The position numbers and the translations under genes were made by a program. A stretch of 3,003 nt of DNA from Escherichia coli (GTDB lineage Bacteria; Pseudomonadota; Gammaproteobacteria; Enterobacterales; Enterobacteriaceae). The stretch's first letter is position 1; each line of letters begins with the position of its first letter. This document shows positions 1 to 2,312 of the stretch, piece by piece. The notes beneath the pieces were generated by a model. It was not told where the DNA came from. It saw only the letters and a list, made by a program, of their open reading frames with translations, and did not search any database. The stretch lies in assembly GCF_003334385.1 (NCBI RefSeq), contig NZ_QOWN01000096.1. One strand, given 5' to 3'.

Positions 1-2312
1 TCCACCGTCTGCCGTTCGCCCGTCAGGCGGCCTTTATCGTCATAGCCGTAGTGGACCGCCACACGGTGGCCTTCACTCAGGTGGCTGATTTCTGTCAGCC
101 AGCCGTGGTCGTCATACTGCCACTGCTCCGCCGGTTCACCGTTCACCGTGCGCCGGGTGATACGGTCTGACGCATCGTAATGCCAGAGGGTGATAAGCCC
201 CTCGTCTTCACTCTGCGTGAGTTTTCCGGTCAGGTCATAATGGTAACGTTGCGTCCGCCCGTCAAAGCCGCGCTGTTCAGTCAGCCTGTCCACCGGGTCA
301 TACCGGAACGTGGACTGGCTGCCGTTCTCGTTGGTCAGCACGGTGATGCGCCCGGCAGCGTCATACCCCATGCTGCGCGTCAGACCGCCCTGCGTGGTGC
401 TGATGGCTTTACCCCACGCATCATACTGTGTCTCACTGCGGCTACCGTCCGGGGCAATGATAGCGGTGAGGTCGCCTGCGGTACTGTACTCATAACGGGT
501 CTCCCGCCCCTGCGCATCCTTCTGACTGACCAGTTGCCCACGCGGGTTATAACTGCTGTAAGTGCTGATGCCTTCCTCCCGGTGAACGGCGATTTGTTGA
601 CCGTACCAGTCGTACTCATACCGCGTCGTGTACCCCGAGCAGTCCGTAAAGGCCAGCAGTTGACCGTAACGGCTCCATGCCATCTGTTTTGTACTGCCCG
701 TCGCATCCTCTATCCCTGTCGGCAGCTCACTCGCCGGGTCATCATAGCTGTAACTCGTCGTCTCACCGCTGCGTGAGGTCTCCGCCGCCAGCCTTCCCTT
801 CTCATCATACTCCCGGCTGCTGCGAAGCCCGTCCGGGTACGTCACCGACGTCACCTGCCGCTGGCTGTTATAGCCATACCGTACCGTCCTGCCGTCCGGC
901 CCCGTCACCGCCGTCACCGCACCCGACGCCATATGCAGGCTGTACTCCGTCCGCCGCCCCGCCGCATCCGTCTGCGCCTTCAGCCTCCCCGCCTCATCAT
1001 ACTCGCTGCGGGTGATGCTCCCGTCCGCATGCTCCTTTTTCACCACCCGCTTCAGGCCACCTTCGCCCTCCGTGTACAGCACCTCCCGCCGGTTCAGACT
1101 GTCCGTGATGATTACCCGGCGCTCTCCGTACTCAAAGCGGTAGTCCAGCCCCTCCGGGTTGACCTGCTCCGTCACCCGACCGGTATCATCATACCGGTAG
1201 CGGCTCTCCGGCCTCCCCGCATAATGGTGCGCCACCATCCGCCCGGCGTGCTCCGCATCATAAGTAAACCCGCGAACCTGCGTCCCGCTGCGGTCATACA
1301 CCGCCCGCAGTTCTCCGCTGGCCGTGTACGTGTAGCGCGCCAGCGGCGCAGTCGGCTGTTCATCCGGGTATGCCGGGTCGTGTGTCAGCCATACCGCCTC
1401 CAGCCGGATACCGTTATCGGCACCGTATTCTGTACCGGCGGGCAGCGTGTCGGGGAAAGCTGAAGAAGAAGAGGAAACAGAACGGGGACCGGCCGGAGAA
1501 GATAAGGAAGACTCGCGCTGTTTACGGAAGGCTTCCGCCCGCTGCGCCTGTGTGCTCAGCGCCAGGTGAAAACGGCGACCCGCGCCGTCCGTCACCCTGG
1601 TGATTTCGCCAGCCAGTTCGCCTGCGGCCTCGCGGTGGAAAGCCAGCGTCCGCCCGAAGCCGTCCACCACGCCCGTCAGCACCCGGTATGCGGGCGGCTC
1701 CGGCGGCAGCACCTCGTCCACCTCCGGCACCCGCTCCGGCCAGCTGAGTATCCACCACGGCCCCTGAAGGCTGTTTGCTGCCAGGTACGCATGCGGACTC
1801 AGGCGAACATCTTCCGGCAGCACCTGCCAGAGCGCGCTTAACGGCTGCGAGCTGTGCTGCGTCGCCACCCCGCCCCGCGCCAGCCAGAACGACTCGCTGC
1901 GGCTGTAGCTTATCTCGCCGGGAAACAGCGGCTCAAAGTGAATGCTCCTGCCGCCGCTGTCGTTGAGTATCAGTTCCCGCTCATGAACCTGTAAGCGGAT
2001 ATCGAAGGGCGCTTTCCAGCCGGGACCGAACACCCCCACCGGCGCGGGCGTCCTGGTCCGGTAGCTGCTGTAAGCGCGGGAAAGAATAAACGGCAACGGG
2101 CCGGGCAGCGCAAGGTCCGTCTCGCCCGGCAGCACCTTCGCACCCAGCACCGGGTTCACCGGGTGGCCCTTCTGCTCCTCTATCGGGCTGTTGGGACATA
2201 CCGAGCAGGCCACTCCCGTCGGCGCACCTATCAGCACACCTGCTGAACCCTGCACAATATCCAGTCCCTTGCGGGTCATGTCACCCTGCCGCGCCGCCGG
2301 TTTTCCGCTCAT
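1..2312 (-). CDS. rhs: Rhs family YD-repeat protein, N-terminal ~770 codons; 3' end (C-terminal part of the repeat shell and any toxin tip) lies beyond position 1
   Basis: ATG at 2312..2310 is preceded by AAGGA (2320..2324, 7-nt spacer) and by an in-frame stop at 2316..2318, so it is the 5'-most start. Hand translation gives MSGKPAARQGDMTRKGLDIVQGSAGVLIGAPTGVACSVCPNSPIEEQKGHPVNPVLGAKVLPGETDLALPGPLPFILSRAYSSYRTRTPAPVGVFGPGWKAPFDIRLQVHERELILNDSGGRSIHFEPLFP..., then ...ELAGEITRVTDGAGRRFHL..., ...LSTQAQRAEAFRKQRESSLSSPAGPRSVSSSSSAFPDTLPAGTEYGADNGIRLEAVWLT..., YD motifs such as RYRYDDTGRV (1173..1202) and HYGYDDKGRLTGE (15..53). I scanned every codon of this frame from 3 to 2312 and found no stop. 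The sequence closely resembles enterobacterial (E. coli-type) Rhs N-terminal and core regions as I recall them from memory. Confidence 0.93.
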   Translation of the reverse strand, partial: MSGKPAARQGDMTRKGLDIVQGSAGVLIGAPTGVACSVCPNSPIEEQKGHPVNPVLGAKVLPGETDLALPGPLPFILSRAYSSYRTRTPAPVGVFGPGWKAPFDIRLQVHERELILNDSGGRSIHFEPLFPGEISYSRSESFWLARGGVATQHSSQPLSALWQVLPEDVRLSPHAYLAANSLQGPWWILSWPERVPEVDEVLPPEPPAYRVLTGVVDGFGRTLAFHREAAGELAGEITRVTDGAGRRFHLALSTQAQRAEAFRKQRESSLSSPAGPRSVSSSSSAFPDTLPAGTEYGADNGIRLEAVWLTHDPAYPDEQPTAPLARYTYTASGELRAVYDRSGTQVRGFTYDAEHAGRMVAHHYAGRPESRYRYDDTGRVTEQVNPEGLDYRFEYGERRVIITDSLNRREVLYTEGEGGLKRVVKKEHADGSITRSEYDEAGRLKAQTDAAGRRTEYSLHMASGAVTAVTGPDGRTVRYGYNSQRQVTSVTYPDGLRSSREYDEKGRLAAETSRSGETTSYSYDDPASELPTGIEDATGSTKQMAWSRYGQLLAFTDCSGYTTRYEYDWYGQQIAVHREEGISTYSSYNPRGQLVSQKDAQGRETRYEYSTAGDLTAIIAPDGSRSETQYDAWGKAISTTQGGLTRSMGYDAAGRITVLTNENGSQSTFRYDPVDRLTEQRGFDGRTQRYHYDLTGKLTQSEDEGLITLWHYDASDRITRRTVNGEPAEQWQYDDHGWLTEISHLSEGHRVAVHYGYDDKGRLTGERQTV
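1461..1511 (-). other. Ser-rich low-complexity linker within Rhs (SSLSSPAGPRSVSSSSS), between the N-terminal domain and the YD-repeat region
   Basis: Hand translation of 1461..1511. On the plus strand the tract reads tga aga aga aga gga, i.e. a short AGA/GGA trinucleotide run. Confidence 0.6.
2196..2303 (-). other. PAAR-like motif region at the Rhs N-terminus (residues ~4-39)
   Basis: KPAARQGDMTRKGLDIVQGSAGVLIGAPTGVACSVC resembles a single PAAR repeat unit (P-A-A-R-x-G-D followed by a G/V/I-rich strand segment). There is no long hydrophobic transmembrane-like stretch in the first ~150 residues. Confidence 0.45.

Follow-up and report, generated by a model that had tools for sequence, protein, structure and literature searches.

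The closest described system to the locus studied here is Tse5 of Pseudomonas aeruginosa (PA2684, RhsP1; PDB 8CP6), a VgrG1c-dependent effector of the H1 type VI secretion system (H1-T6SS), of which the 47-residue N-terminal fragment (Tse5-NT) has been called a "PAAR-like domain" (PMC10684867). The N-terminal autocleavage site of Tse5 was experimentally mapped to K47/P48, residues 30–47 of Tse5-NT pass through the DUF6531 plug, which keeps them anchored in the interior of the cage, and the authors hold the N-terminal fragment to be necessary for secretion (PMC10684867). In a preprint, a triple deletion of tse5, tse6, and tse7 abolished the assembly of the H1-T6SS, as did a triple deletion of vgrG. 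Here, we analyze a stretch of 3,003 nucleotides of Escherichia coli DNA (contig NZ_QOWN01000096.1; the whole stretch is referred to as the window), which contains the 5′ part of a gene encoding an RHS element core protein (rhs for the gene and Rhs for the protein below). Profile comparisons identify a single PAAR repeat at the N-terminus of this Rhs, and the region is probably the delivery module of a Tse5-type Rhs toxin.

Two further groups of proteins are relevant for the comparison. Effectors of the prePAAR/Eag class combine an AARxxDxxxH motif with transmembrane (TM) helices, a full PAAR domain and a gene for a DUF1795 chaperone (Ahmad et al., PMC7773334), and a requirement for the His/Cys metal ligands of PAAR has been described in the same work (PMC7773334). 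In E. coli, "PAAR-Rhs" toxins are reported to kill in a T6SS2-dependent manner (Ma 2017b, as cited in PMC6730261 and PMC7216683), and Z0268 of enterohemorrhagic E. coli (EHEC), the equivalent of ECs_0237 of strain Sakai, is named "PAAR" (PMC7216683). Because the literature calls these proteins "PAAR-Rhs" and their N-termini a "PAAR motif" or "PAAR domain", a single-repeat PAAR-like tip on Rhs toxins is already known. The published accounts of E. coli PAAR-Rhs cited here speak of a "PAAR domain" and contain no remark on a single repeat or on the stoichiometry at the spike.

A PAAR-Like Unit at the N-Terminus of Rhs

The window is chromosomal DNA of E. coli, with full-length matches to many complete genomes at 99.7% identity, in which the rhs gene is annotated as "RHS element core protein". 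The parts of the gene that are needed for the comparison are the following:

1..2312, minus strand: RHS element core protein gene, 5′ part (770 codons), from translation; the ATG is at 2312-2310 and the open reading frame (ORF) continues past the left end of the window
2226..2306, minus strand: single PAAR repeat unit, residues 3–29 (GKPAARQGDMTRKGLDIVQGSAGVLIG), from PF05488 and the family and unit profiles; putative VgrG-docking element
2163..2225, minus strand: linker and putative anchor, residues 30–50 (APTGVACSVCPNSPIEEQKGH), from alignments A1 and A2, the Tse5 structure (PMC10684867) and variation among paralogues
2136..2165, minus strand: predicted site of N-terminal autoproteolysis, H50 (2165-2163)/P51 (2162-2160), and the adjoining motif PVNPVLGAK (residues 51–59), from the alignment with Tse5
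1935..2168, minus strand: DUF6531 domain, residues 49–126 (N-terminal plug of the Rhs cage), Pfam PF20148 with an E-value of 1.2e-18; the role as plug is taken from the Tse5 structure
1..1326, minus strand: RHS/YD repeats, residues 329–767 (start of the beta-cage), Pfam PF05593 with 11 repeats, and TIGR01643

An initial annotation of the window, made from its letters, had placed a single PAAR-like repeat at 2196-2303 (minus strand), which translates to KPAARQGDMTRKGLDIVQGSAGVLIGAPTGVACSVC and corresponds to Rhs residues 4–39. Searches with the single sequence were ambiguous. A Pfam scan of the 770 residues gave no PAAR match even at E ≤ 10. Residues 1–59 and 1–50 scanned alone matched PF05488 with independent E-values of 0.027 and 0.018, respectively (approximately 15 bits, residues 2–29), and in a phmmer search against PDB sequences two PAAR proteins ranked at the top with E-values of 0.23 and 0.9. 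The homologues retrieved with residues 1–148 were without exception near-identical fragments from enterobacteria; PF20148 was present in each of them and PF05488 in none.

As such single-sequence searches are too weak to decide, family profiles were used instead. From a scan of 1.84 billion representative proteins a family set of 574 relatives was obtained, and 46 non-redundant N-terminal fragments drawn from it form alignment A1. PF05488 matched 42 of these 46 N-termini at E ≤ 0.1 and was the sole recurrent family among them, so that the profile search proposed with the initial annotation was borderline for the single sequence and positive for the family. Searched against solved PAAR proteins, the A1 profile identified SalCis10 (9rce_c, 7e-13), VCA0105 of V. 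cholerae (4jiv_D, 2.6e-10) and the c1882 PAAR of E. coli (4jiw_D, 2.1e-8), as well as the PAAR domains inside Tre23 (2.5e-6) and Tas1 (2.2e-5). The stretch of the solved proteins that matched best, against profile positions 3–28, was always the last repeat. These comparisons place residues 3–29 as one PAAR repeat, homologous to the C-terminal repeat of a canonical PAAR; residues 30–39, the remainder of the segment originally assigned, belong to a conserved linker with the motif GxACSxCP.

A profile of 27 positions, representing the unit, was used to count the repeats. In the full-length Rhs of a window-like genome (1385 aa) it found exactly one unit (residues 3–29, 50 bits) and no second, cryptic one, compared with three units in the rare relatives P0180, P0201, P0205, and P0206, where the third is usually the top-scoring. 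The contrast drawn initially between one repeat here and three in a canonical PAAR was therefore borne out. The description as a degenerate or cryptic PAAR was not: the unit is close to the PAAR consensus GKPAARxGD...GS..V.IG (GKPAARQGD in the window) and matches the last repeat, so that it appears to be a truncated PAAR instead. Among relatives with approximately 50% overall identity, residues R8, D11, V26, and G29 are invariant and G3, P5, A6, I19, G22, S23, and I28 are at least 90% conserved; the invariance of the former at this level of divergence indicates that the unit is under purifying selection.

In comparison with the canonical PAAR (PF05488; 4JIW, 4JIV), the 27-residue unit thus corresponds to one repeat, whereas the canonical proteins have three in one chain; with one repeat instead of three, a monomeric cone cannot form. 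Rhs residues 1–35 contain no His or Cys and hence lack the apex His/Cys metal ligands of the canonical domain, and the position aligned to the metal ligand varies across the family in A1. As the Rhs has a single repeat, lacks metal ligands and stays below the Pfam threshold, it is not, strictly speaking, a member of the PAAR domain family.

Rare Relatives With Three PAAR Units

The three-unit relatives have a PAAR-DUF6531-Rhs organization and are collinear with the window protein, at approximately 50% identity, from the third unit through the linker, the cleavage motif, the plug, and the cage. They differ in having two more units at the N-terminus, and their N-terminal fragment is accordingly 101–108 aa long. 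PF05488 is recorded for P0180, P0201, and P0206, and the gene for P0206 lies 52 nt after vgrG in a T6SS cluster.

The metagenomic relative P0201 (L010 6001-7488) contains three units with practically the same score, 37.7–37.8 bits each, against the single-unit profile, and with Tyr at the positions of His/Cys in canonical PAARs. Its PAAR looks like a triplication of a single unit. The P0201 locus is an orphan, with no vgrG within 6 kb upstream.

We also compared the VgrG C-termini encoded upstream of one-unit and three-unit Rhs proteins (L007 31600-32004; L002 2-379; L004 7506-7925; L011 5529-5948). They end similarly (...GxHLELxxGxARxVLxxDGxIFLNG...WNCGAS/T..P-rich tail), and in these four C-termini no feature was seen that would compensate for two absent PAAR repeats.

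The Rhs Protein Resembles Tse5 in Its N-Terminal Architecture

Directly after the unit and linker, residues 51–148 of the window Rhs align with Tse5 chain B (8cp6_B), starting at its P48 (E-value 2.4e-14), which is the first residue after the mapped cut of Tse5. In the window Rhs, P51, V52, G57, K59, and D66 are invariant in the family. By analogy with Tse5, cleavage probably takes place between H50 and P51. This conserved N-terminal autocleavage site had been missed in the initial annotation, even though it lies right after the unit.

The resemblance extends to the whole N-terminal region. Both proteins have a short N-terminal fragment (47 residues in Tse5 and 50 in the window Rhs) with one PAAR-like unit and a linker, followed by the motif P-V-N-P-x-L-G-x-K, the plug, and the cage; both lack TM helices and an Eag chaperone, and vgrG is found directly upstream in the family. 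A single unit is present in 203 of the family members with a recognizable cleavage motif, and the commonest length of the N-terminal fragment is 47 aa (150 members). The N-terminal fragment of Tse5 (MSGLPVSHVGEKVSGGVISTGSPTVHVG...) joins the family through Pseudomonas intermediates (P0254) with an E-value of 2.2e-5; against a unit profile from which Tse5-NT had been left out, it scores 19.6 bits.

There are also differences. Tse5-NT lacks the Pro-Ala-Ala-Arg signature (it has LPVSHVGE), whereas the window protein keeps GKPAARQGD. The linker of the window Rhs is longer by 3 aa and contains a CSxC pair, its C-terminal toxin, which lies outside the window, may be unrelated, and the window copy has no adjacent vgrG. 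As far as the sequence allows comparison, the window Rhs fits the Tse5-type architecture on every feature except this adjacent vgrG.

In the linker, the conserved GxACSxCP is followed by a hypervariable stretch. Residues 40–50 (window 2163-2195, minus strand) are hypervariable among E. coli rhs paralogues, with 3-aa differences in length and conservation on both flanks; the variants are PNSPIEEQKGH, PKKKDSPNYGN, PTGEATPKYGN, PGGITYAN, and PGGMTSGN.

Absence of a Transmembrane Segment and of an Eag-Type Chaperone

The initial annotation had also noted the lack of N-terminal hydrophobic helices and had argued that no Eag-type chaperone is needed, and both points are sustained. No TM segment was found in the 770 residues, the maximum Kyte-Doolittle mean over 19 residues being 1.28, within the Gly/Pro-rich unit itself. 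As there are no N-terminal TM helices to shield, there is no need for an Eag/DUF1795 chaperone. In line with this, no DUF1795/Eag gene was found, the ORF upstream of rhs being without a Pfam or NCBIfam match, and there is no gene between vgrG and rhs in E. coli O157:H7 Sakai, P0140, or P0206.

The window motif AARQGDMTRK has a lysine at the position of the prePAAR histidine, and this position is not conserved in the family. Class I prePAAR Rhs proteins (P. protegens RhsA, Salmonella Rhs1, Photorhabdus Tre23/Rhs1) are likewise Rhs cage toxins that are loaded onto VgrG by an N-terminal PAAR-type module and that undergo N-terminal autocleavage at a homologous plug. However, their prePAAR motif, TM helices, full PAAR, and adjacent Eag/DUF1795 gene are all absent from the window, and its Rhs is not an effector of the prePAAR/Eag class.

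Genomic Context of the rhs Gene

Homologues of the window Rhs are linked to vgrG and T6SS genes. The corresponding chromosomal site of O157:H7 Sakai, between aspV and yafV, carries a complete T6SS-2 cluster in which hcp and vgrG are followed, after a gap of 75 nt, by rhs (ECs_0237). The N-terminus of ECs_0237 is identical to that of the window Rhs over residues 3–40, and the rhs cores share 93% nucleotide identity up to approximately 20 nt before the ATG. A relative of 69% identity (P0140) has the same layout of vgrG, 75 nt, rhs, and immunity gene, and the family member P0129 is encoded inside a T6SS cluster. At a query coverage of at least 80%, the vgrG-rhs junction of the Sakai type occurs in 2852 of 5426 complete E. 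coli genomes and the junction of the window type in 90. In a profile scan of six-frame ORFs of the 45-kb T6SS-2 region of Sakai, no PAAR-like sequence other than the Rhs N-terminus was found, and the six-frame ORFs of loci L001, L002, L004, and L007 yielded no PAAR partner that could act in trans.

In the window itself, vgrG is absent and the genes upstream of rhs are the following:

2389..2838, minus strand: dsORF-h1 ("RHS element protein dsORF-h1"), 149 aa, from annotation; 32% GC and a signal-peptide-like N-terminus (MMKYLMVLLSLFSGSVLG)
2909..3003 (L001 17909-19768), minus strand: 3′ end of an ISAs1-family (ISEc1, "H-repeat") transposase gene, from annotation and the comparison with Sakai; marks the lost vgrG/T6SS context

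The window copy therefore differs from the E. coli "PAAR-Rhs" (also T6SS2-Rhs or Rhs-Nb; Ma et al., 2017b, insofar as that work is summarized in reviews), with which it shares the gene family and the N-terminus, in that it follows ISEc1 and dsORF-h1 and not vgrG. In ETEC1720, next to the tRNA-Asp gene (aspV), the interval from a truncated yafT to the start of rhs is replaced by IS1-ISEc1-dsORF-h1, and the approximately 25.6-kb T6SS-2 cluster with vgrG of Sakai (L007 6476-32058) is missing. Strain 300709 (L008, NZ_CP025903.1) is 100% identical to the window over 2000-2700; its rhs is annotated as frameshifted and the adjacent T6SS-2 is decayed: it is interrupted by IS1, tagH and tssJ are incomplete, and the first rhs lacks its N-terminal end. 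No vgrG was present in the 24.7 kb of this locus that were examined.

The small upstream ORF, dsORF-h1, had been considered of interest for the chaperone question. Its GC content is 32%, compared with 64% for rhs. In strain OkiPb01685 (L009, NZ_AP042523.1) it is located 11 nt downstream of a vgrG-linked rhs, and it is therefore read as a downstream ORF of the Rhs immunity type, which has been orphaned in the window; it belongs to the context of the delivery module and not to the module, and is unrelated to chaperoning. We also considered the ORF as an Eag-type chaperone, which was rejected on the grounds that it has no match to DUF1795 or another family, a low GC content, a signal-like N-terminus, and a position 3′ of rhs elsewhere.

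Behind dsORF-h1, OkiPb01685 has an intergenic region like that of the window (L009, approximately 14001-14120) and then only the initial ~42 nt of a window-type rhs, with ISAs1 next. This rhs stump shows repeated truncation mediated by insertion sequences (IS) at the array.

Other Features of the Window

The NCBIfam model NF041261 (RHS_core) spans Rhs residues 1–770 with 1542 bits (profile positions 1–765 of 1261), to be read against a curated cut-off of 2000 bits that is set for the whole protein, of which the window holds a 770-aa part. The window protein probably belongs to this family of RHS core proteins in E. coli. The start of the gene is marked by the following feature:

2319..2324, minus strand: Shine-Dalgarno-like AAGGAA, read from the sequence, 6 nt upstream of the rhs ATG

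An N-terminal extension of Rhs from an upstream start was considered and ruled out, because a good Shine-Dalgarno sequence precedes the ATG and the gap of 76 nt to dsORF-h1 leaves no room for it. A scan for promoters and terminators in 2250-3003 gave nothing exceeding the expectation from shuffled sequence. Rhs residues ~268–287 (window ~1450-1510, minus strand) form a serine-rich low-complexity insert, RESSLSSPAGPRSVSSSSSAF, located after the plug region and before the first RHS repeats.

Structure Models

In the AlphaFold2 model of Rhs residues 1–165 the confidence was low, with a mean predicted local distance difference test score (pLDDT) of 58.6 and values below 50 for residues 1–6 and 22–67. 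The model is in line with a segment unable to fold by itself and is neutral on the PAAR fold and on the bound state, so that the structure prediction suggested with the initial annotation neither supported nor refuted a PAAR cone.

Of five AlphaFold2 models of an artificial chain of three consecutive units, one folded into a PAAR cone (pLDDT 76; residues 1–80 at 81–88), with template-modeling scores of 0.69/0.76 against 4jiw_D and 0.66/0.73 against 4jiv_D. The other four models had a pLDDT of 32–36. At most, the three-unit model suggests that the unit is compatible with a PAAR cone.

Proposed Delivery Mechanism and Alternative Explanations

Taken together with the published work on Tse5, the region is best explained as the delivery module of a Tse5-type Rhs toxin, and we consider this reading probable. 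By homology to Tse5, linker residues 30–50 would thread through the DUF6531 plug and be held inside the Rhs cage. The autoproteolytic cut at H50/P51 would leave an N-terminal peptide of approximately 5 kDa that stays anchored non-covalently, with the PAAR unit exposed. The exposed unit, unfolded when alone, may dock by beta-strand addition on the blunt end of the beta-helix of its cognate VgrG, and through this docking the ~155-kDa cage with its C-terminal toxin would ride on the T6SS-2 spike. For cleavage, anchoring, binding of VgrG by the unit and any activity of the window copy, the model draws on analogy with Tse5 and on what reviews relate of Ma et al., 2017b.

For the window copy the outcome may be different. 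With the cognate vgrG missing and an IS and an orphan immunity gene upstream, this rhs appears to be an orphan, deliverable only by a VgrG from elsewhere, or else silent or decaying. The initial annotation had suggested T6SS delivery: this is supported for the family, which is linked to the T6SS by vgrG synteny and by Tse5, but it is not implied for the window copy, since there is no vgrG at the locus, and it is doubtful that this copy is delivered if no other site in the genome encodes a VgrG that fits it.

Several observations weigh against a delivery module of this type. The single-sequence match to PF05488 is sub-threshold, the AlphaFold2 model of the N-terminus has low confidence, and no structure has a one-repeat PAAR bound to VgrG. 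At loci of the window type the vgrG and T6SS-2 genes are absent or decayed, with a frameshifted rhs in strain 300709. In Tse5 itself, residues 1–29, which form the PAAR-like unit, are disordered in the cryo-electron microscopy map, and the N-terminal cleavage is dispensable for competition (PMC10684867).

The low scores of the single-sequence searches (E-values of 0.02 to 0.9) could be taken to mean that a Gly/Ala-rich N-terminus resembles the PAAR motif by chance. We give this practically no weight, as the family profile matches independent PAAR proteins of solved structure with E-values down to 7e-13 and the window protein is collinear with three-unit relatives that carry PF05488. If the homology is accepted, the unit might still be a vestige of an ancestral full PAAR, with the cage, the plug or a C-terminal tail of VgrG docking in its place. 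The invisibility of the unit in the Tse5 structure (PMC10684867) and the lack of His/Cys metal ligands in residues 1–35 would fit such a remnant, as would Aeromonas TseI, which is reported to bind VgrG through non-PAAR "VIRN/VIRC" regions (PMC7170923). Against it speak the invariance of R8, D11, V26, and G29 with PAAR consensus positions retained in diverged relatives, the fixed length of the N-terminal fragment (mode of 47 aa in 150 family members), and the view of the Tse5 authors on its necessity for secretion (PMC10684867), and we consider a vestigial unit improbable. Still less credible, and in our judgment very unlikely, is that the AARxxD segment acts as the prePAAR-like half of a split PAAR, completing the incomplete PAAR of another protein in trans. 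AARQGDMTRK resembles the prePAAR motif AARxxDxxxH, but the histidine position is a lysine here and variable in the family, and there is no TM domain, downstream PAAR or Eag gene. Moreover, the alignment of the unit extends over 26 residues and covers a whole repeat, the best match being the last repeat and not the N-terminal strand, and the T6SS-2 region offers no PAAR-like partner ORF.

The remaining explanation concerns how many units sit on one spike. Three Rhs N-termini, each contributing one repeat, might assemble at the tip of VgrG, which has three-fold symmetry, into a PAAR-like cone. In that case each spike would be loaded with three Rhs cages, and these might come from different paralogues, because the E. 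coli rhs copies share nearly identical N-termini. The cone formed by the artificial three-unit chain in one AlphaFold2 model is consistent with such an assembly, as is P0201, a natural PAAR composed of three units that each reach 37.7 bits against the single-unit profile. Full-PAAR and single-unit Rhs proteins are encoded in the same slot, 52–75 nt after vgrG, their VgrG partners have similar C-termini, and no other PAAR-like ORF is present in the O157 T6SS-2 region. However, four of the five models of the three-unit chain were unfolded, and AlphaFold2 may merely recognize a PAAR-like sequence. With approximately 29 residues of Tse5 outside the cage, three cages of ~155 kDa would be expected to crowd around a tip ~25 Å wide. 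Solved complexes of VgrG with Rhs proteins that have full PAAR domains reportedly contain one Rhs per spike, which we count against a homotrimeric cone. We therefore regard a homotrimeric cone as unlikely, and retain the docking of the single exposed unit of a Tse5-type Rhs as the more plausible reading.

Implications

The unit is a reliable sequence marker of Tse5-type rhs genes in enterobacteria whose products are delivered by VgrG and T6SS-2 independently of a chaperone, and the PVNPxLGAK motif marks the probable cut site. At the window locus, a toxin gene has been stranded by the IS-mediated loss of its spike gene, which is typical of the decay of Rhs elements. Of wider interest is only the stoichiometry, one or three copies on a trimeric spike, as it sets the number and identity of the Rhs toxins per firing event. 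If the homotrimeric cone were true, as many as three different Rhs toxins would be fired with one T6SS spike.

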